From Pachysolen tannophilus NRRL Y-2460 (lineage: Eukaryota), in contig KV454014.1 in assembly GCA_001661245.1 (NCBI GenBank), forward strand, positions 1,022,892 through 1,086,891: a stretch of 64,000 bases of DNA. The letters run 5' to 3'. The position numbers and the translations under genes were made by a program. Positions 25,042 to 47,822 of this stretch are shown here, in pieces; position 1 is the stretch's first letter, and every line of letters begins with the position of its first letter. The notes beneath the pieces are model-generated. The model ran no database searches and had not been told where the DNA came from. It saw only the letters and a list, made by a program, of their open reading frames with translations.

Positions 25042-25144
25042 ATTTTATCTGGACATAAATATATTTATATATATATACTTTTATATATTATAATTTTTAT
25101 AATTCATTGCCTTTTGAGAAAAGTATTAAATTGCAAGAATAAGA

Positions 25145-26535
25145 ATGTCAGGTTTATTGCCATTATCATCATACAACTTAGAGTTAAAGCCGTTTGAGCC
25201 AACTCCAGCAATTGAAGATGACTTTCCAGTTACTATTAGAATAACTTTAGCTGCAATTGATCCAGAAGATAATGATGGTGAAGGGGTTCCATCTACTTTA
25301 AGAATTTTGAAAAGATCTGCATTCATTGACGATGATGATTTATCTGATTATGATTCTGAAGATGGTTCGTTAGACGAAGACGAAGATGAAGAAGAAGATG
25401 AAGAAAAAGAAGTTGAAGAAGAAGAAGAAAAACCAAAGAAGGGTAAGAAATCAAAGAAGGCACAAAAAGAAGAAGAAGAAGAAGAAGAAGAAGAAGAAGA
25501 AGAAGAAGAAGAAGAAGAAGAAGAAGAAGATGCTGAGGATGTTGATGGTGAAGTTAAGGATGATGATGAAGATGATGAAGAAGATGATGATTTGGATATT
25601 GAGGACTTGGACGATGGTGTTGAAGAATATGTTGTCTGTACTTTAGGACCAAAATTCCAATACCAACAAACTTTGGATTTAACAATTACTCCAGAAGAAG
25701 AAGTTTTCTTTGTTGTTACTGGTTCTTATGCAATTCATTTAACCGGTAACTATGTTGAACATCCTTACGATGGTGATTCTTCTGATGAAGAAGGTGATTA
25801 TGATGATTACTCTGATGAAGATGATTTGGATTCTGAAGATTATGATTTAACTCCAGATGAAGATGAAGTTTTATCTGGTGAGGAAAATTACGATTTGGAT
25901 GACTTGGAAGATGTTGATGATGTTGAAGGTAAAATCGAAGAAATTCTTGAACAAGAAGAAGGAGAAGAAGAAGAAGAAGGATCTGAAAATAAGAAACAAA
26001 ATAAGAAACGTTCTTTAAAAGAAACTGAACAACAACCAAGTAAGAAATCCAAGAAATCAAAAGATGAGAAAAGAAATGTTAAATTTTCTGAAAACTTGGA
26101 ACAAGGTCCAAGTGGTTCAACTTTAGTATCTGATAAAAAGGAAAAAAAAAGGATTCTACTACTTCACCAGTTTCTGATGAGAAAAAGGGCAAAAAATTCC
26201 CAACAAAACAATTAATTGGTGGTGTTACCATTGAAGACAGAACCGCAGGTAAAGGTCCAGTTTGTAAAAGCGGCCAAAGAGTAGGTGTCAGATACATTGG
26301 TAAATTGAAAAACGGTAAAGTTTTTGATAAAAATACCAATGGTAAACCTTTTACCTTTGGACTAGGTAAAGGTGAAGTCATCAAAGGTTGGGATGTTGGT
26401 GTCGCAGGCATGGCTGTTGGCGGTGAAAGAAGAATTGTAATTCCAGCTGCAATGGCTTATGGTAAAAAAGCTTTACCAGGAATTCCAGCAAACTCCGAAT
26501 TAACATTCGATGTCAAATTGGTCAGTATTAAATAA
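25145..26535 (+). CDS. FPR3: Nucleolar FKBP-type prolyl isomerase (Fpr3/Fpr4), split by a 1-nt frameshift near the A9 run at 26142-26150
   Basis: Nucleoplasmin-like N-domain, acidic tracts including a long (GAA)n; the FKBD ([39 protein letters not shown]) continues in the -1 frame. Confidence 0.9.
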
Positions 26536-27662: not shown

Positions 27663-30329
27663 ATGTCATTTCTTAAGAGCATCGTAACAAAACCGGCGGC
27701 CATGTTATCAAAGACTTCTGCATCATATCCCATACATACCCTTATAACTTTAACTTTATTGGCGTCGTATGCTTATTTGTCAATTGTTGATGAATATATT
27801 GTAAGAGGATCAAATTTGAATAATAACAATGGCGGTAGTGGTTATGTTAATCCTCAAGTTGTTGGTGAAGTTTCATTTTATCATCCTCATGGATCCAATG
27901 ATTATAATAATTGGATTGAAATTGAAGATTATTCACAATTTAGTAATGATGTTGATCACATTGCTGTTACTTATTTAACTTTCAAAGATGTTAAAAATCA
28001 TGAATTACCAGAAATTAAAGATAGTTTCCAAAGTATGGTAAAAAATGAAAGAATTTTAATTACAGATTTTGATGGAAAAGACAAAGTACTTCTGAATTTA
28101 AATAAACTTACAAGTAGTGATGGTACAAATTGGAAATTAAGACATCCAAATGGTTTAGAATCTTATTCAGATTATGCTAAATTAATTTTCCAAAGATTAG
28201 AAAATTGTATAAGAGGTGCTGAAACTTCAGATATTACTTTAATTGTTATAGCCTATATAGCTATGTGGTATACATTTTGTCAACTTTTCTTTGGAATGAG
28301 AGAAGTTGGTTCAAAATTTTGGTTGGCATTTGGATCATTATTATCATCTGGGTTTGGTTTTTTATTTGCTCTTTATTTTGTTACAATTATTTTAGAATTA
28401 CCAATCTCTTTAACAACACTTAGTGAAGGTTTACCATTTTTAGTTGCAACAATTGGTTTTAAACATAAAGTTGTTTATACTGAACCAATATTGAAATTTA
28501 TTTCGAAAAATAAAAGAAAAGATATTCCAAATATCATTGCTCGTGCTGTGGAAGAAGTTGCTGCATTGCATTTAATTAAATATCATTCAATTGTTCTTGG
28601 TGCATTTTTAGGTTGTTCAATTTATGCTCAACATTTAGAAGGTCTTAGAAATTTTTGTATATTAAGTGCTCTGATTTTAGTTTCAGATTTATTGATGACT
28701 TTTTCATTTTATTCTGCTGTCTTGGCTTTAAAAGCAGAAATTAATAAGGTTCATGAATCATTAGAATTAAAAGAATTTTTACAAGAAGATGGGATTAGCG
28801 AAAATGTTGCTGGTGTTGTTGCTGAAAAAAATAGTAAATCTACAATTTTCCAAAAAAATGCTGGAGTAGTAGGTTTTAAAATTGCAATAATTGCTGTATT
28901 TTTCGGTATTCATTTATTTGTATTGGGAACTTCTTGGATGTATGATTCTAATTCAGAATATAGAGTTTCATTTGCTGATACTAAACAATTTGTCAATGTC
29001 TTGTCAAAAACTACTGCACAACATATTAAAATTGGACAAAATGGTACAATTGCAACAATTATGCCTCCTCGTGTTTTCACCCCTACTGGATTTATAGCTA
29101 AAGCTGAAGATGTATTTTTATCCAGTTTACATACCATTGCTAAGGCTACTATTGATCCATTAATTAGTAAATTTTTATTATTGGTCACTGCAATCAGTGT
29201 TTCAATCAATGCTTACTTGTTAAATGCTACTAGGTCACATATCAAAAATGTTTCGGTTGTTGCAGAAGCTGTTTCTGTAGCTGAAAATATTAAAAAAACT
29301 GAACATAATAATAAAAGTACCGAGACCATTGTTTCTTCATTTAGCAAGCCACTGAATAGAAACTTTGTCAGTTCATCAGTTGAACATGTTGAAACTGATG
29401 ATACTATATCTTCAAGTGATGATGATATCAAGTCCGTAGATCTTATTCCAAACCAAGAGCCTAAACGTTCCGTTGAAGAACTTGTTGAATATATGAAAGA
29501 AGGAAAGTTGAAAACATTGTCTGATTCTGAAGTTGCCACTTTAGTAACTGTCGGGAAAGTTCCTCTTTATGCGTTGGAAAAGCAATTAGCTGATAACACT
29601 CGTGCTGTTCTGGTGAGAAGAAAAGCTATTGCTAATTTAGCGGATGCTCCTATTTTAGAGACTAATAAGCTACCTTATAAACATTATGATTACAATCGTG
29701 TCTTTGGTGCATGTTGCGAAAATGTTATTGGTTATATGCCATTGCCAGTTGGTGTTGCTGGACCATTAATTATTGATGGAAATCCTTTCCATATTCCGAT
29801 GGCAACTACTGAAGGATGTCTTGTTGCTTCTACTATGAGAGGTTGTAAAGCTATAAATGCAGGTGGCGGTGTTACTACTGTTTTGACTCTGGATGGTATG
29901 ACTAGAGGTCCTTGTGTTTCATTTCCTTCTTTGATCCGTGCAGGTGCAGCAAAGATGTGGTTGGATTCAGAAGAAGGTTCCACTCGTATAAAGAAGGCTT
30001 TCAATTCAACTTCCAGATTTGCAAGATTACAAAGCATTCAATGTTGTTTAGCAGGAACATTATTATTTATTCGTTTTAGAACTACTACTGGAGATGCCAT
30101 GGGTATGAACATGATATCAAAAGGTGTTGAATATTCATTGAAATATATGATTGAAGAGTGTGGATTCGAAGATATGGTTGTTATCTCAGTTTCAGGTAAT
30201 TATTGTAGCGATAAAAAAGCTGCTGCTATAAATTGGATTGAAGGTAGAGGTAAATCGGTTGTTGCTGAGGCAAGAGTTCCTGCAGATGTTGTTCGTAAAG
30301 TGTTGAAATCTGATGTTAAAAGAAAATAG
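27663..30329 (+). CDS. HMG1: HMG-CoA reductase, N-terminal 885 codons (membrane/sterol-sensing domain and most of the catalytic domain), truncated at an inversion breakpoint
   Basis: HPIH-like YPIH motif, SSD, GACCENVIG, ATTEGCLVAS, TGDAMGMNM, DKKAAAINWIEGRG; homology ends at VLKSDV, followed by KRK-stop. Confidence 0.95.
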   Translation: MSFLKSIVTKPAAMLSKTSASYPIHTLITLTLLASYAYLSIVDEYIVRGSNLNNNNGGSGYVNPQVVGEVSFYHPHGSNDYNNWIEIEDYSQFSNDVDHIAVTYLTFKDVKNHELPEIKDSFQSMVKNERILITDFDGKDKVLLNLNKLTSSDGTNWKLRHPNGLESYSDYAKLIFQRLENCIRGAETSDITLIVIAYIAMWYTFCQLFFGMREVGSKFWLAFGSLLSSGFGFLFALYFVTIILELPISLTTLSEGLPFLVATIGFKHKVVYTEPILKFISKNKRKDIPNIIARAVEEVAALHLIKYHSIVLGAFLGCSIYAQHLEGLRNFCILSALILVSDLLMTFSFYSAVLALKAEINKVHESLELKEFLQEDGISENVAGVVAEKNSKSTIFQKNAGVVGFKIAIIAVFFGIHLFVLGTSWMYDSNSEYRVSFADTKQFVNVLSKTTAQHIKIGQNGTIATIMPPRVFTPTGFIAKAEDVFLSSLHTIAKATIDPLISKFLLLVTAISVSINAYLLNATRSHIKNVSVVAEAVSVAENIKKTEHNNKSTETIVSSFSKPLNRNFVSSSVEHVETDDTISSSDDDIKSVDLIPNQEPKRSVEELVEYMKEGKLKTLSDSEVATLVTVGKVPLYALEKQLADNTRAVLVRRKAIANLADAPILETNKLPYKHYDYNRVFGACCENVIGYMPLPVGVAGPLIIDGNPFHIPMATTEGCLVASTMRGCKAINAGGGVTTVLTLDGMTRGPCVSFPSLIRAGAAKMWLDSEEGSTRIKKAFNSTSRFARLQSIQCCLAGTLLFIRFRTTTGDAMGMNMISKGVEYSLKYMIEECGFEDMVVISVSGNYCSDKKAAAINWIEGRGKSVVAEARVPADVVRKVLKSDVKRK

Positions 30330-30460
30330 CAAGAAAGAACAAAAAAAAAAAAAAGAAGAATTAATATGATATATAAAACATGTGCATCAATAATGGGGAT
30401 GGTGGCATAACATTATTCTTTTTTTTTTTTTTTTTTTTGTTGTTGTTGTTGTTGCTGTTA

Positions 30461-30967
30461 TTAGGATTTTATGCATGATCCAATAATCACTTTATCATTA
30501 TTAGTTTCTGGATTGTTGGTACTGGCCACTTTTCTATTATGTTGCATGTGACTTTGAACCAAATGTCCAGCAGCTAACGCAGATAATAAAGATAATTCTG
30601 CAGCTAATACTGCCGATGCCACTATCTTGGCCAATTGTCTAGCATTGTTTCCCGGTTGATCGACATTGGCTCCTTTCACACCTAAAAGTTCCAACATTGC
30701 ACTCTGAGGTTCCAAAATAGTACCACCACCTATAGTTCCAACTTCAATAGAAGGCATAGATACAGATATTATTAAATCTCCATTTTCTTTATCTTCATTC
30801 ATTAAAGTAATACAATTTGATGATTCAACATTCTGTGCAGGATCCTGACCTGTAGCTAAATAAATTGCAGTAACTAAATTTGCTGCATGTGCATTAAACC
30901 CACCAACAGCACCGGCCATTGCAGATCCAATTAAATTCTTATCAACGTTAACTTCAACCAATGATGT
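30461..30967 (-). CDS. HMG1: HMG-CoA reductase, C-terminal 168 aa, on the opposite strand
   Basis: [61 protein letters not shown]; no initiating ATG at its 5' end. Confidence 0.95.
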
Positions 30968-31534
30968 CACCGTGGAGTTTTTTTATTTCATTTTTTTCAT
31001 TATTTTATTTTGGTTGTTTTAGAAAAAAGTAATTGAAAACTGAATTCCTGTAATTTTATATACTATTTATTTAATTTAGAGAAATGTAAAGTCGGCTGTT
31101 ACTATTTGCCGTCATTGCACGGCTGAAAGTTAGATCTATTAAATCGTCACATATTGTGGAGTTGTAAGTAAGTGTATCTCGCTCGGCAAAGGAAGTACTG
31201 GTCTCCAACGCTATTCTGTTTTCACTCGGTACCTGACTCCAATAATTATAAACACTAGATCATCTCAAAAGAGGACCGATAACGATACCGAACCCTCAAC
31301 GGAGTATCTTTGATTTCAAAAAATTTTTGTTAGTTTTCGGTTAAGTGTTGAAAAAAAAAAAAATACCAAAAACAAAAAAAAAAGAAAAAATTTTTTGTAT
31401 AGTAGTAAAGTAAGACAGAAATTTTTCAAGATAAATTATCAGGTCTATAAAGAGACCACCCATCGTGATATTTACTGACGATAGTCATATTGTTTTTCTG
31501 TTTCTTTTGAGGAGAGGTATAGGTTTTGCTGGTT

Positions 31535-34500
31535 ATGCAGTCGACTAGCTCCAATACTGTTGGAGATCACGAAGATAATAATAATAATAATAATATAAAT
31601 AATAGTACCAAGAGTAGTAGTGGTAATAATGATCAGTTTTATGGTGATTCTGGTTCTAAAACATATCAAGTAGCGCAAGGTAATGAAGCTGTTTTTTCTT
31701 CACCAACATCGGATGGAAATTCAGGTCGAGGAAAAGTTTATGATGAAAGTAGCAACATGACCGAGTTGGTGGGGATGGAATCGCAGGACGTTTCTGTTTT
31801 TACTGGTGATAAAAATCATGCACCAACAAAGAGAAGAGCTGTTGCTTGTAAGTCATGTCATGCTTTGAAAGTTAAATGTACACCGATAGATGTAAAACTT
31901 CCATTAGGGCCTTGTGTTAGATGTGCTAAGGCGAAAAGAAAGTGTGAAGTGGATTTAGCTCCGGTAAAGAGAAGAAAGAGGAAAATTCAAAAAATTGCCG
32001 GTATTGGTGAAGTTGGAAATCTTTCTTCTCCCGATGATGATACAATAACAACTAACTATAATAATTCCAATCATCGTCATTCGACGATTACAAACGATGC
32101 AAAAGTGGACTTGTTAGAGCTGAGGATAAGGTTCTTGGAAGGACAACTTTCTAATCAACAAAAATCACAACAGTATCAGTACCAACCACATACACATAGT
32201 ACGAGCCCTGGAATGGTATTACATCCAAATTTAATGACTCTTCATCCTCCTGTTTCTAATCCAACACCAAATTTGACTCAAAGTAACTCTTATGGGTTTT
32301 TACCATTACAACATACATCTATGAGCATTAACAATAACAAAGATTATCAAAGCTTTGGGAAACCGCTGCTGATGCCTCTGGTTTCCAATCTTCAGCATAG
32401 ATCTTCTTTTATTATTAACGATAACAATCATAATAATGTCCCAAATCTGAATTTACAAGATACGCTGTTACATGAACCATCAGTACAGGCGACAACGTCA
32501 ATATTGCAACCAAGTTCAAATCGTGAGCGTTCCAGTATTACTTCTATTGTTCCTAGCAATCGTACGTCTTTGTTTGAAAAACAGATGTCGTCAAGTTTAG
32601 AAATTGGGCAAAGTCATACAAATACAGATGAACTTCAGAAGCTTCAAGAAGAAATAAATTTGTTAATGAACCATCCAAGTATTAAATTATCTCTGTTAGC
32701 TGCAAATGTTTTGAAAATTGCAGATAAGAGAATAGATCTCATCAATAATCAATTTGATAAATCTGAGAATGACATTATAGGGAAAGGATATATTACGAAA
32801 GAACAAGCTGAGGAAAGATTACGTTTGTATAAGGGTACAATGACAAAATTTTTCCCATTTGTCACAATTCCTGAAAATGAAACTGTTGAAAGTTTGAGTA
32901 GTGAGAAGCCATTTTTATTTTGTACTTTAATGTCAGTTACTGCTGTAGCTGTAGGGAAAGATCAAGTCTTGGAGAAGCAGTTCGATATAGACTTAGTTAC
33001 TATCAAATCAATTACAAATGAGGTTTTAATCATTGGGAACAAGTCAATGGAATTACTTAAAAGTTTATTATTATTATGCATCTGGTATAATACTCCTGAA
33101 TTGTTTCACCATAGGCGTTATCATTTGATCAATTCCTTATGTGTCTCAATGGTTAATGACTTGGGATTAACTGGTAGACCTTATTTTTATTATAATAGAG
33201 AAGAAGGCTCAGTATGTCAGACAGTTTCTTCTGATGACTTAAAGAGCCTAGAGTGTCGTCGTATATTGATGACCTCATATTTCACATCCATAAGCATATG
33301 CCTTTTCTTGAGGAGAAGGATGCAAGTCAGTTGGTCTAATTATTTAGAAGAATGCTGTGATGTTTTGTATAATAGCAATGTGGAAGGAGATAAGATTTTT
33401 GTCATATATACAGAATTAAACCATATGTTGGAAAAAATTTATTTTATTGTTCAATCTGTTAATGATGTTAACGAGGCATTAGAATTAAATTCTGAAAGAA
33501 TGAGGTATATTGTCAATGAATTACAATTGAATTTAAATAAAATCAAATCAAAGATCGATAAAGATGATCATTTAAAATTGGCATATTATTACTCTGTTCA
33601 AGCTTATCTCCATGAGCCAGCTTTACATAAATTGTTACCTAGTGCTAATAATAACAAGGGAATTGACATAGATCTTTTATATGTGGATTTACCGAAAAAC
33701 ATTCTGACATCAATAGATAAATGTACCCAATCGTGTTTGGCTACCTTGTATCATGCTAGTCAATTATCTTTAGAAGAAACAACTGTTATGCCATTATTTT
33801 TTTCATCCAGAATAATATACACAGCAGGTATGTTATTGAGATTAAGATATTTAGTTATTTCAATACCTTCAATGTCTGTTTTCAATTTTGTTCCTAGAGA
33901 GTCTGTTGAAAAAATCCACTTATTATCACAAAAACTTGAAAAGACATATCAAAACTATCCTTCAAACCATTTATTATGCAAGATAAGATTGGTTATTACT
34001 GTATTTAATCAAACATATACAACACAATTAAAGAATCTTTTGGAAGTTAAATCTAAAAAAAGAGATGAGTCTGATGAGAGAAACTATAGGTCCGAGAATC
34101 ATCTGGAAAGTTTGCTGCAAAAAGATCATAGATATTCATTAAAACCATTAGATATCTTATCTGATGCAGCTGCTAAAGCACATGCAGATTCTCAAAAAGA
34201 ATTTAAAGAAAATATTCTTTTCAAGATAACACCAGAAGAACTAAGTAAGAAATCAAATGAAATTTCGGATGACACAAATAATGGAGAGAGTACTAGTAAC
34301 TACGATAATCGTATCATAACAAATGTGAATTTAGACGCTGTGGAATTTTCTTACTACGCTTTAAATGACGAATTTTGGGGAGATTTACTAATGGGCGATA
34401 ATAATGTTGCAAACTTATATGAAAACAACTTTGCTGATAACAGCAACAACAATAACAATAATAATGATTATGAAGAGAACACTGGCGAAAACCCCAATAA

Positions 34501-34552
34501 TGGGTCGATCAGGTCGAATGGCTTGAACGGTAATGATGATATGGCGTTTTGA
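31535..34552 (+). CDS. WAR1: Zn(II)2Cys6 transcription factor, War1-like (weak-acid response)
   Basis: RRAVACKSCHALKVKCTP...PCVRCAKAKRKC resembles War1; follows HMG1 as in S. cerevisiae (YML075C/YML076C); first ATG at 31535. Confidence 0.8.
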   Translation: MQSTSSNTVGDHEDNNNNNNINNSTKSSSGNNDQFYGDSGSKTYQVAQGNEAVFSSPTSDGNSGRGKVYDESSNMTELVGMESQDVSVFTGDKNHAPTKRRAVACKSCHALKVKCTPIDVKLPLGPCVRCAKAKRKCEVDLAPVKRRKRKIQKIAGIGEVGNLSSPDDDTITTNYNNSNHRHSTITNDAKVDLLELRIRFLEGQLSNQQKSQQYQYQPHTHSTSPGMVLHPNLMTLHPPVSNPTPNLTQSNSYGFLPLQHTSMSINNNKDYQSFGKPLLMPLVSNLQHRSSFIINDNNHNNVPNLNLQDTLLHEPSVQATTSILQPSSNRERSSITSIVPSNRTSLFEKQMSSSLEIGQSHTNTDELQKLQEEINLLMNHPSIKLSLLAANVLKIADKRIDLINNQFDKSENDIIGKGYITKEQAEERLRLYKGTMTKFFPFVTIPENETVESLSSEKPFLFCTLMSVTAVAVGKDQVLEKQFDIDLVTIKSITNEVLIIGNKSMELLKSLLLLCIWYNTPELFHHRRYHLINSLCVSMVNDLGLTGRPYFYYNREEGSVCQTVSSDDLKSLECRRILMTSYFTSISICLFLRRRMQVSWSNYLEECCDVLYNSNVEGDKIFVIYTELNHMLEKIYFIVQSVNDVNEALELNSERMRYIVNELQLNLNKIKSKIDKDDHLKLAYYYSVQAYLHEPALHKLLPSANNNKGIDIDLLYVDLPKNILTSIDKCTQSCLATLYHASQLSLEETTVMPLFFSSRIIYTAGMLLRLRYLVISIPSMSVFNFVPRESVEKIHLLSQKLEKTYQNYPSNHLLCKIRLVITVFNQTYTTQLKNLLEVKSKKRDESDERNYRSENHLESLLQKDHRYSLKPLDILSDAAAKAHADSQKEFKENILFKITPEELSKKSNEISDDTNNGESTSNYDNRIITNVNLDAVEFSYYALNDEFWGDLLMGDNNVANLYENNFADNSNNNNNNNDYEENTGENPNNGSIRSNGLNGNDDMAF

Positions 34553-41928: not shown

Positions 41929-44054
41929 TTAAATTCCACTCTTCCTCTTTTTAGTAGAATGTGGAGAAATATCATCGATAATGCTAGTATCCAAACCATT
42001 GATATTATCAACATTATCATCGTAAGCCCTTTTCACAGCGCTATCGTTGCTATTATCATTTAAACCTGGTTGAAAACTTTCCAAATCATTCTTATAAGGT
42101 GTTCCACCTTCATGTGGAGTTCCAGACACCAAGAAATCATCTACTGTAAAATTTTCATCTAACTGCGAATCAGCCAAATCTGTATTGCTAGTATCACTTC
42201 CATCACCACTATTCTTGGAAGCTGCTAATTTATTAATCCATTCATGAATATTTTGAATTGATTCTCCTTGTTTATTAATGTTTGCTTCCAATGCTTCCAT
42301 AAAAGATTTTTTCTCTTTAGTTAACTGTCTTGGTGTGTTTGGTGATAAGTTACTATTTGGATTTTCTGGTGAAATTCCAGAGTTATAGGTATTCAACGTG
42401 TTCAACCCTAAGTCATCAATATAACCAGGATGATTGATGTTATTAATGTTAAAATTTGACGAACCCAGTAAAGCATTTGAGTTCTGTGGTATCTCTAAAT
42501 CAGGAAATAAAGATCTTGGTGACGGAACGATACTATAGTTATTATTATTACCATTGGTATTGCCATTGGTATTACCATTGGTATTACCATTGGTATTGGT
42601 CCCAATATCAGAGTCGATTATTTCTTGAATAAAAGGGTGATTAGTCGAACCATTACTCCTATTATTATGATTGCCGTTACCCAACATGCTATTTTCCAAA
42701 GCTTGTTGATTCTCATAATAAATATTCCTATCTTTTGGAGACCTTGAAATTTCTTGAATAGGAGAATCATTTGAAGCAGTGTCAGTATTTTTGTTATTAT
42801 AACGAGCTGGAATATTTTGATTAATTTGATCATTTTTAATTCCTCCATTTGAAGTATTCGAAGACGTTCTTCTATGAGCATTTTCTGTAATCATTAATCT
42901 TGGTCTAGAATAAGGATTTTTATCTCCATTATTATCATTTGAATTATATGCCGTTGGATTCATATTATTATTAGTGTTATTCATGGTTGTTAAATCGGTA
43001 CTATTCATACTATCAACAACTTCTAAAATTTTATTATTATTTCCATAAACAGAGGCTAAAAATCTTAAAATTTTTTCCAATGTTTGACTTTGTTTAGTAT
43101 GTCTTTCTCTGGTTAAATAATTTTCTTTCCATAATAATTCGTTATCTTTTCTTACTCTTCTCAAATCTTCTGCAATCAGAATTTGATTCATTTTTATATT
43201 TTCCAATTCATTCAACAAGATACCAAAATCAATTTCTGAATCTTCTTCATCTCCTTTATTAGATTTATTCCTAATAATGTTATCTAATAAATCTTCTCTA
43301 TCTTTTATAAAATCCGGATTTTCAAACTGCCAAAAATCTTCATTTTGAGTGATACCACTTTGAATTGAACCATGAGTAACATCTTGAACTTTATGCCAAC
43401 CGTACATATTCAATTGTCTTACAAAACTAGCAAAATTGTTATGTTTGAAATATTTTGGTAAAATATGTTTCATAAATTCTTCTCTATTGGAAACCATAAA
43501 TGATTGTCCATCAGGCACCCATTTTATATATTTTTCATTTGCCTTATCGTTGACCATATTCCATAATTTAGTTACAAAAGCAGGACGAGATTTTGGTCCT
43601 GTTGTATTTTTTTTGGTTTTTGTTTTTTCAAATGCATTGGTTTAGGGTTATTAATCACAGAAGAAAAGGGAAATTGATTATTTGAGCTATTAATATCAGT
43701 ATCACCATTTTTAATCAAAGCATTTGAAAAATTAATATTTTCTGGCAATACACTATTAGAAAGTTGGGTTAAAGAATTTGAATCTGTCTGCAGCGGCAGC
43801 GGCTGGAAATAAGCCAACTCGTTATTATTATTATTATTATTATTAGTAGTAGTAGTAGTAGTATTACTGTTGTTATTATTATGATTAACTTGTAGATTAT
43901 CAACAGGACTTTCGTTATACAACGCAGGCGTTATAATATTATGGTCTTCATTCAATCCAATGTATGCATTATTACCATCATAATATAATTTATCGTCAAC
44001 ATTCAAATCATTATTGTTGACAGAATTTCCGGTATTACTTGTATTGGTACTCAT
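41929..44054 (-). CDS. HSF1: Heat shock transcription factor, split by a 1-nt frameshift within about 43572-43640
   Basis: DBD frame reads GPKSRPAFVTKLWNMV...LPKYFKHNNFASFVRQLNMYGWHKV plus the trimerisation heptad; the upstream Asn-rich ORF (ATG 44054) overlaps it in another frame. Confidence 0.9.
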
Positions 44055-45557
44055 AAACAAGTTATTTCTAATTTAAATAATAATTATGATTTTCTTTTAT
44101 CTTAATCAAGTCTAGATTTGGACTCAAAGTTTTTCTTTCCTTCTTTCAATTAATTTTTTTTTAAATAAATTAAATTAATTCAGTTGAGACCTAATAAATT
44201 ACCAATTCTAAAATTGTAAGTGTTAGTTTTTTGCATCTCATCTCATCATTAATAACATATGGATGTAAGATATTTCTTGTTTCAATATATAGTATTTTGC
44301 ACATGCATGTATCTAATTTCTCCCAAAATCAATATACTTAATTCAACTCAATAGTCAATCTTTCAATTATCTCGGATACCATCAAAACAAAAAAAGTTTC
44401 CCCACAATAGCATCCATATTATTTTATTTGGAATTATGAAAAAAATGATTAGCACCCGAAACGTATTTAAACATACATGCAATAATTTATTACGATAAAA
44501 CAAATTTATCGCAAAAAGCAAAAAAACTTTAAAATATCCACCTTCAATCCATTGTCATAAACTCAATTAAAGGAAAAAAGCAAAAAAAAAAAAGATATAC
44601 TTACTTTTCTTCAAAAAAATTTTCTTTTCTTCCTTCTAGTTTTAAAAAAAAAAAAATTTTTTTTTTCTAGCTCAAACTGAGATTAATTGAATTCTGTATC
44701 TTTGAAAGTTATTTAATAATTACTTAATACTTGTTTTAATTAGGGTTTATTATATATTATATTATATTGCCCATCATTTAGGCAAAAAAAAGAGAAAAAA
44801 AAAATTAAATAATAAAAAAAATACAAGGTAGTGCAAATGGACACAAAACAATATTTGAGTTTAATTTGTATGGTGTTTTGAGATATGGCAAAAAAAAGGG
44901 AGATGAGATGAGATGAAAGATGAGGGGAAATGTTACTTTCTTAGTGTGGTGGCGGTCATGCTGATGATGAATTATCGATTAGTCAAGAGATGTTTTTTTT
45001 GTTCAATTACAGATTATTATTGGTGTGATGATGATCATTGGAATAGATCTTCAATGAGATGGTTCAAATTATAAATTGGGTATACAATTGTGCATTCTGA
45101 GCACGACCACAAGGTTAATGTATGTATGTATGTATGTATGTATGAGTGAATTTATTTCTTTTTCAATTTACTTGGTATTGGTATTGGTGTAATGGCAATG
45201 GCGGCAGACATTTCCATGGATTTTAATGGATATATTTAATCTATCCAGTATCCAATATTAGAGTAATTAAATGATTGAAGGTGTTTTTTTTTTTTTAAGT
45301 TGTTTTATTAGCACAGTTTATATAGTGGAGTGCAAAAAGGGACAATTCAGTTAATCTTTTACAATATAATATAAATATATAATTTATAACTATGAATTGA
45401 TTCATTAATATACATAAAACCTAATTTAACGAATAAAACTTCCCAAGAAAAAAAGAAAGAGAAAGAGAAAAAAAGAAATAAAGGAAAATAAAATAAAAAA
45501 AAAGAAACCCCCCATTAGAGATAAAATTGTGTAATGTATTGTAATTTTTTACACAAT

Positions 45558-47407: not shown

Positions 47408-47822
47408 NNNNNNNNNNNNNNNNNNNNNNNNNNNNNNNNNNNNNNNNNNNNNNNNNNNNNNNNNNNNNNNNNNNNNNNNNNNNNNNNNNNNNNNNNNNNN
47501 NNNNNNNNNNNNNNNNNNNNNNNNNNNNNNNNNNNNNNNNNNNNNNNNNNNNNNNNNNNNNNNNNNNNNNNNNNNNNNNNNNNNNNNNNNNNNNNNNNNN
47601 NNNNNNNNNNNNNNNNNNNNNNNNNNNNNNNNNNNNNNNNNNNNNNNNNNNNNNNNNNNNNNNNNNNNNNNNNNNNNNNNNNNNNNNNNNNNNNNNNNNN
47701 NNNNNNNNNNNNNNNNNNNNNNNNNNNNNNNNNNNNNNNNNNNNNNNNNNNNNNNNNNNNNNNNNNNNNNNNNNNNNNNNNNNNNNNNNNNNNNNNNNNN
47801 NNNNNNNNNNNNNNNNNNTNTN
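47408..47822. other. Assembly gap (N run) bounded by poly-T
   Basis: Ns in the sequence; the ORFs called across it are spurious. Confidence 1.

Follow-up and report, generated by a model that had tools for sequence, protein, structure and literature searches.

A flip of about 650 bp splits the HMG-CoA reductase gene in a Pachysolen tannophilus scaffold, probably as an assembly artefact

Structure of the split HMG-CoA reductase gene

The window analysed here, a 64-kb stretch of DNA from Pachysolen tannophilus, carries an HMG-CoA reductase (HMGR) gene that is divided between the two strands (Table 1). The plus-strand ORF (27663..30329, 888 aa) is HMGR-like through ...VLKSDV and then ends in KRK and a stop codon; the missing 168 HMGR codons are found in a minus-strand frame that starts at 30967 and runs down to 30464. 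ORF reading, Pfam matches and alignment all confirmed this arrangement, which had been described in an earlier note on this DNA, and a script that reverse-complemented 30318-30967 restored a single 1053-aa ORF, as that note had claimed. CTG is translated as Ala (table 26) in the source contig, as fits a Pachysolen-type yeast. No single ORF encodes the whole of HMGR in the scaffold, a property of the scaffold that is read from its sequence.

Table 1. Features of the split HMGR locus (positions are those of the window; a dot marks a feature without strand)
Feature	Position	Strand	Evidence or remark
First 885 codons of HMGR: HPIH N-terminal domain, sterol-sensing domain, linker and first two thirds of the catalytic domain, including TTEG Glu and DKK Lys	27663..30317	+	PF13323, PF12349, PF00368 positions 2-233/368; 1dq8_A positions 20-302
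TGATGT, one base left of the left junction	30311..30316	+	Same six bases close the block at 30962-30967
KRK read-through and stop, from the flipped 3' flank	30318..30329	+	Database protein P0001 has an identical end
Reversed block, 650 bp	30318..30967	.	ORF restoration and alignment; equals 30319-30966 (1-bp ambiguity); protein equally fits blocks up to 3 bases wider per side
3'-UTR-like A/T-rich sequence, 143 nt, moving with the coding piece	30318..30460	-	A14 run, T20 run, GTT repeat
Last 168 codons of HMGR, with catalytic Asp (TGQD), GTIGGGT and catalytic His (SHMQHNR)	30464..30967; stop 30461-30463	-	PF00368 positions 231-368/368, E 3e-55; 1dq8_A positions 306-452

The Pfam family HMG-CoA_red (PF00368) is complete only after the plus- and minus-strand ORFs are joined, and matches to PF13323 (E 4e-16) and PF12349 (E 2.5e-9) on the plus-strand ORF indicate that the N-terminal membrane region with its sterol-sensing domain is present. 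In an alignment with seven full-length relatives, the N-terminal piece runs to column 1014 and the C-terminal piece continues from column 1015, with zero gap or overlap in all seven; along the structure chain 1dq8_A, the two pieces take up positions 20-302 and 306-452, respectively. The earlier statement that no residue was lost or gained thus holds at the coding junction (7/7 relatives), the only place where such exactness is seen, but does not carry over to the 3' junction, which has no reference sequence. The minus-strand coding piece is not a chance ORF, because a 169-codon open frame has a probability of about 5e-7 at the local base composition and the Pfam match has an E-value of 3e-55. 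Both halves are undecayed: the core of the C-terminal piece is 80-85% identical to the seven relatives, and the adjoining N-terminal piece is 81-86% identical.

The protein resembles class I HMGRs (yeast Hmg1/Hmg2 and the catalytic part of human HMGCR, PDB 1dq8) in its HPIH and sterol-sensing domains and in a full PF00368 domain when summed over both pieces, and is 62% identical to Scheffersomyces stipitis HMGR over residues 400-885, but it differs from that class in having its last 168 codons on the opposite strand in the scaffold. Four catalytic-type residues, Glu, Lys, Asp and His, are conserved at 1dq8_A chain positions 138, 270, 346 and 445, and we take these to fill the catalytic roles of the corresponding HMGR residues. 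The Asp of TGQD aligns with chain position 346 and the first His of SHMQHNR with 445 (presumably D767 and H866, if 1dq8_A begins at residue 422, an offset of 421), which bears out the earlier claim that the flipped part carries both; in the same alignment, the TTEG Glu and DKK Lys remain in the plus-strand part. Because Asp and His are thereby separated from Glu and Lys, the gene as drawn lacks half of its active site. HMGR is an essential enzyme in yeasts.

Breakpoints and junction sequences

The inversion had been described as exact, but its breakpoints are not fixed to the base: flipping 30319-30966 yields DNA identical to that obtained by flipping 30318-30967, and symmetric widening of the block by 1-3 bases, with junction bases read by eye, leaves the protein unchanged because the Val codon remains GTN. 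The true block length could thus lie anywhere from 648 to 656 bp. ORF length alone is an insufficient guide to the breakpoints, since other pairs among the 1225 tried reach 1059-1061 aa by way of junk residues; the predicted positions are accordingly those set by alignment to relatives and not by ORF length. The round figure of 650 bp was considered as a hint of an in-silico edit and rejected, as the length is known only within 648-656 bp.

As the scaffold stands, the two TGATGT copies at the junctions are a direct repeat; flipping the block back would bring them together at the left break as a 6+6-bp palindrome, with a single base between the arms. When a 650-bp block was placed at random 20,000 times, a match of at least 6 occurred at the left junction in 0.67% of placements and at one or other junction in 1.4%. 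A target-site duplication was considered as the source of this 6-bp direct repeat and rejected, as the supposed insert is the HMGR gene's own end. No inverted repeats beyond 1 bp flank the block; other inverted pairs are A/T-rich, low-complexity sequence, and none lies at the junctions. Nor is there any N at either junction: the sole Ns of the 64-kb window form a 411-N gap at 47408-47822, with the nearest 16.4 kb away. A search of the 30 long ORFs of the window, 27 of which had a Pfam family match, revealed no recombinase, integrase or transposase family. The earlier view that neither flanking inverted repeats nor a recombinase support a DNA switch was therefore upheld for this window.

Database copies, sequencing runs and consensus quality

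The flip is present in the public scaffold. The protein database contains both fragments, each from one public contig of 1,446,495 bp: P0001 (888 aa, ending SDVKRK) and P0121 (171 aa, STV followed by TSLVEVN...IKS). P0001 ends in the KRK read-through, and P0121 has three residues translated through the right junction. Another public draft of this type strain, assembled separately, is cited in PMC4937558. An uninverted or second HMGR from the same organism was absent from the best 120 matches of each of three protein-database searches, as was an independent copy of the locus in either orientation. In these searches, the top match besides the window's own proteins was 62% identical at full cover for proteins of 486-1549 aa (best 120 of 6979); the top identity was 75% at full cover, or 83% over 77% of the query, for proteins of 92-294 aa (best 120 of 2406), and 86% for proteins of 295-2000 aa (best 120 of 296 at E <= 1e-60). 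The search for a second HMG gene that the earlier note had proposed was thus negative within the best 120 matches per search, and the argument for a single-copy HMGR is weak, as it is drawn from those matches. Short partial HMGR fragments from short contigs do occur among the best 120 of the 2406 matches of 92-294 aa. A metagenome search revealed no same-species contig among the best 80 of 423 relatives (top identity 84%), and a literature search, judged from titles and the openings of abstracts, found no paper on the Pachysolen HMG-CoA reductase gene; a further one on P. tannophilus and the Newbler assembler gave only unrelated work.

Five of the seven listed sequencing runs, drawn from two studies, contain a fraction of 0.89 of the 193 words sampled from the stretch, and the run from the second study matches the four of the first sample in this share. 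Equal word share in an independent run is equally expected under a real flip and, because junction-spanning words make up only 60 of 1771 31-mers (about 3.4%), the run word share neither supports nor rejects the flip. No RNA run containing the stretch was found among the seven listed runs.

The consensus of the 64-kb window is imperfect, with homopolymer frame breaks in two other conserved genes: an A9 run interrupts the frame of an FPR3/4-like gene (26142), and an 8-base A/T run that of an HSF gene (43607), where the frame of the DNA-binding domain has no Met ahead of the domain. A tRNA gene search of the 64-kb window returned none, so there is no CAG tRNA there.

Origin of the flip

The flip is most likely not a real biological feature, and on the sequence and database evidence we consider that it is probably an artefact of assembly or finishing, the explanation that had also been ranked first in the earlier note. 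The living yeast would carry one ordinary intact HMGR gene of about 1053 codons, and a piece of about 650 bp would have been joined the wrong way round during contig building or gap closing of the public draft, possibly as a small contig or patch inserted backwards. This piece would be flanked by the small palindrome on one side and by the T-rich, homopolymer-laden 3' region on the other, both of which are features that might break contigs, and annotation would then have yielded the two fragments of 888 aa and 171 aa. Such an origin is consistent with the occurrence of the flip in the deposit itself (P0001 and P0121), with the lack of decay in either half, with an enzyme drawn without its Asp and His although HMGR is essential, and with the absence of a second HMGR named for the organism from the best 120 matches per search. 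The machinery that a programmed or repeat-driven flip would need is not seen, and the window contains other consensus errors (the A9 run, the 8-base A/T run and the 411-N gap). Against this explanation, the junctions lie within continuous sequence, and a flip at the contig level would normally require reads supporting both of them; because the nearest N is 16.4 kb away, simple misorientation of a contig bounded by gaps does not account for the block. According to an excerpt of the source (PMC3532452), GAGE-type evaluations count inversions as one of the standard kinds of misassembly, and do so for many assemblers. The locus resembles that class in having a block reversed in place with intact sides, in a scaffold with gaps and homopolymer frame errors, but has no N at either junction, and its membership in the class is presumptive.

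A real and very recent inversion in the sequenced stock, existing alongside an intact copy (owing to disomy, to a culture that was diploid or mixed, or to a second HMGR gene missing from the assembly), is possible but unlikely. It could have arisen from two breaks and end joining, or from a strand switch at the small palindrome. The clean junctions inside the contig, with no N near, fit such an event, as do the equal word share of the second-study run, the undecayed halves, which suit a very young event, and a left break at a 6+6-bp palindrome, a situation seen in about 1% of random placements. However, the only visible HMGR would be dead, and a second HMGR of the organism is absent from the best 120 matches per search; furthermore, the breakpoints have just 1 bp in common, and by our reasoning a simple strand-switch scheme does not produce the rearrangement from a palindrome alone. 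Template switching of the Ripley type, in which the spacer between short inverted repeats is turned round, would likewise give a small in-place inversion, reversible on paper, but requires inverted arms at both breakpoints; with arms of 1 bp here instead of several bases, this candidate was rejected. If real, a repeat-free, frame-conserving inversion in a viable yeast's only HMGR gene would be very surprising. It is very improbable that living cells carry the flipped and intact forms side by side, with the only HMGR gene toggled or stochastically broken through a repeat-free inversion of some 650 bp that starts from the 6+6-bp palindrome; if true, this would be a novel form of on/off control of the mevalonate pathway, or a fragile site within it.

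We give hardly any credence to a DNA switch in which reversible flipping of the 3' end of the gene would shut down and restore the synthesis of sterols and isoprenoids. The reading frame is conserved at the coding junction, and this clade does invert DNA on cue: the available excerpt of PMC6692504 describes an inducible flip/flop at the mating-type locus of P. tannophilus and Ogataea, in which an 8-kb region lies between 2-kb inverted repeats. The present block shares with that system DNA inversion in the same yeast clade but measures only about 650 bp, has 1 bp common to its breaks instead of 2-kb repeats, and lies inside an essential gene. The 30 window ORFs contain no recombinase family, a single orientation has been seen so far, and the off state of an essential enzyme would be lethal. 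A fixed flip whose two fragments form a split enzyme, with a piece of 152 aa or 171 aa expressed from the minus strand, is barely credible: the minus-strand piece does have an in-frame ATG at 30919 and faces an intergenic region of about 555 bp, but that ATG sits 16 codons inside the piece, and among the listed relatives of at least 486 aa (best 120 of 6979) there is no split form, all but P0001 carrying the domain in one protein. Introduction of the flip by cutting or processing of the analysed window, an option raised in the earlier note, might be suggested by a block near a round 650 bp with a codon-exact coding junction, but the block length is known only within 648-656 bp, and the option is contradicted, and for this window effectively eliminated, by the two fragment proteins in the database from the 1,446,495-bp contig.

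If the flip is an assembly or finishing artefact, its value is curatorial: the public reference scaffold of a CUG-Ala yeast presents an essential and much-studied enzyme as two bogus models of 888 aa and 171 aa. These models are already in protein databases, where they are a possible source of error in orthology tables, pathway reconstructions and gene-loss calls. The HSF and FPR3/4-like genes are also broken in the same stretch, both at homopolymer runs.

Two pieces of one HMG-CoA reductase gene

The HMG-CoA reductase (HMGR) gene is read as two pieces on opposite strands of the window. The N-terminal piece ends in ...VLKSDV followed by KRK and a stop, and covers only positions 2-233 of the 368 of the PF00368 profile (Pfam); the C-terminal piece covers positions 231-368 (E 3e-55), and its stop is followed by 143 nt that include a GTT repeat and two homopolymer runs (A14 and T20). 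Reversal of 30318-30967 by script gives a single 1053-aa ORF. Aligned to seven full-length yeast enzymes, the two pieces abut: column 1014 is the last of the N piece and column 1015 the first of the C piece, with zero gap or overlap in 7/7.

Features of the HMGR gene and of the consensus around it
Feature	Position	Strand	Remarks
HMG-CoA reductase N piece	27663..30329	+	888 aa; HPIH N-terminal, sterol-sensing and catalytic PF00368 domains
HMG-CoA reductase C piece	from 30967 to stop 30461-30463	-	reads [19 protein letters not shown]...
FPR3/4-like gene, frame change	A9 run 26142-26150 (26137-26215)		nucleoplasmin-like domain 25130-26212, FKBP_C 26137-26532
HSF gene, frame change	8-base A/T run 43607-43614 (43572-43641)	-	two frames
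Scaffold gap	47408-47822		411 N, then two single stray Ns

Aligned to chain 1dq8_A of human HMG-CoA reductase, the N piece spans positions 20-302 and the C piece positions 306-452. Position 138 corresponds to the TTEG Glu and position 270 to the DKK Lys, both on the N piece; the TGQD Asp (346) and the SHM His (445) are on the flipped piece, as the earlier note had claimed. We take all four to be the catalytic residues, which with an offset of 421 would be E559, K691, D767 and H866. Since Asp and His are in the flipped piece, the gene as drawn is predicted to be unable to yield active enzyme. Both pieces are undecayed: a 169-codon open frame has a probability of ~5e-7 given the base composition, and identity to seven relatives is 80-85% for the core of the C piece versus 81-86% for the adjoining 167 residues of the N piece.

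Two protein-database fragments, P0001 (888 aa, ending SDVKRK) and P0121 (171 aa, STV followed by TSLVEVN...IKS), match the two pieces. Each has one member, from a contig of 1,446,495 bp, and is marked as window-encoded; three residues of P0121 come from reading through the right junction. The flip therefore belongs to the public scaffold itself, which rules out the sequence-processing origin raised in the earlier note. Comparison of P0001 with the HMGR ORF (27663-30317) gives Ala at 5/5 CTG codons, equivalent to NCBI table 26, and the window has 29.5% G+C; this points to a CUG-Ala clade yeast, most likely Pachysolen tannophilus or a close relative. One HMGR CTG codon is at the site of an Ala in the S. 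stipitis enzyme (RAVAVRR).

Breakpoints of the reversed block

Reversal of 30319-30966 is equivalent to that of 30318-30967, leaving the DNA breakpoints ambiguous by 1 bp, and widening by 1-3 bases per side does not alter the protein because the Val codon remains GTN (our reading of the bases). The block therefore measures 648-656 bp, and a round 650 bp is without significance as a length. Some others of the 1225 breakpoint pairs tried gave longer ORFs (1059-1061 aa) via junk residues; the breakpoints are fixed by alignment, not by ORF length. The earlier claim that no residue is lost or gained is borne out where the coding sequence is joined; for the joint in the 3' region there is no reference, and a loss or gain there would go unseen.

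A six-base direct repeat, TGATGT, occupies 30311-30316, leaving a single base between it and the left junction, and 30962-30967, where it closes the block. With the block reversed back, the two copies would face each other across one base as a 6+6-bp palindrome, right at the left break. Random placement (20,000 trials) gave a match of at least six bases at the left junction 0.67% of the time; counting either junction, the figure was 1.4%. The right breakpoint is within a T-rich tract.

Gene copies and consensus quality

Searches for a collinear same-species HMGR found only the window's own at 90% identity or above, both among proteins of 486-1549 aa (best 120 of 6979) and among those of 92-294 aa (best 120 of 2406). 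Identity was at most 86% for proteins of 295-2000 aa (best 120 of 296) and at most 84% in metagenomes (best 80 of 423), and among the 486-1549-aa matches listed the closest HMGR after the window's own is 62% identical over residues 400-885. No second HMGR of P. tannophilus is named among the best 120 proteins per search; limited to these top matches, this is weak evidence that the gene may be single-copy. Of 193 words sampled from 29700-31500, a share of 0.89 is present in each of five sequencing runs from two studies; that share is blind to orientation because just 60/1771 31-mers span a junction.

The FPR3/4-like gene is read in two overlapping frames that break exactly at the A9 run. The frame of the HSF DNA-binding domain (41929-43641) has no Met ahead of the domain, and an upstream ORF (43572-44072) provides a Met and the N-terminal region. 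Intron signals were not seen at either break, each of which is probably a consensus error of a single base. HSF is essential in yeasts, and a second essential gene thus looks broken as drawn, from a trivial cause. None of the 30 long window ORFs reveals another strand-split gene. Six long 'ORFs' across the scaffold gap are artefacts of the Ns. A public scaffold-level P. tannophilus assembly, which may not be that of the window, is listed in a paper on assembly quality with contig and scaffold N50 values in the 10^4 and 10^6 classes, respectively (PMC13232491).

Origin of the flip

The flip is probably an assembly or finishing error. HMG-CoA reductase is essential, and this reading is preferred because the one copy in view, though perfectly preserved, is dead as drawn and sits in a stretch with other consensus errors, and because a programmed or repeat-driven flip finds no support. 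The earlier note had reported neither flanking inverted repeats nor a recombinase, and both searches agree: the only repeat pairs are A/T-rich, of low complexity and not at the junctions, and no recombinase, integrase or transposase family occurs among the 30 long window ORFs (27/30 with a Pfam hit). A flip that acts as a switch is very improbable, and an enzyme split into two pieces more improbable still; the clean frame would suit either, and nothing else speaks for them. The flip/flop mating-type region of the clade, with 2-kb inverted repeats around 8 kb (PMC6692504), provides no model for the HMGR block. A real, very young inversion beside an intact copy, to which the undecayed pieces would also conform, is unlikely; the copy it invokes is not among the best matches of the protein searches.

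Against assembly error stands the absence of Ns at the block junctions, and a contig-level flip ordinarily requires supporting reads. If the flip is such an error, contig building may have been interrupted at two places, the palindrome and the homopolymer-rich 3' region, and the resulting ~650-bp piece would have been rejoined backwards. Inversion is a routine class of misassembly (PMC3532452), from which the HMGR block differs in having junctions without Ns.

A 1009-codon ORF (31523-34552, + strand) starts 555 bp downstream of the right breakpoint and contains a Cys-rich motif like the fungal Zn2Cys6 DNA-binding domain (Pfam Zn_clus, E 0.047, below the cut-off).
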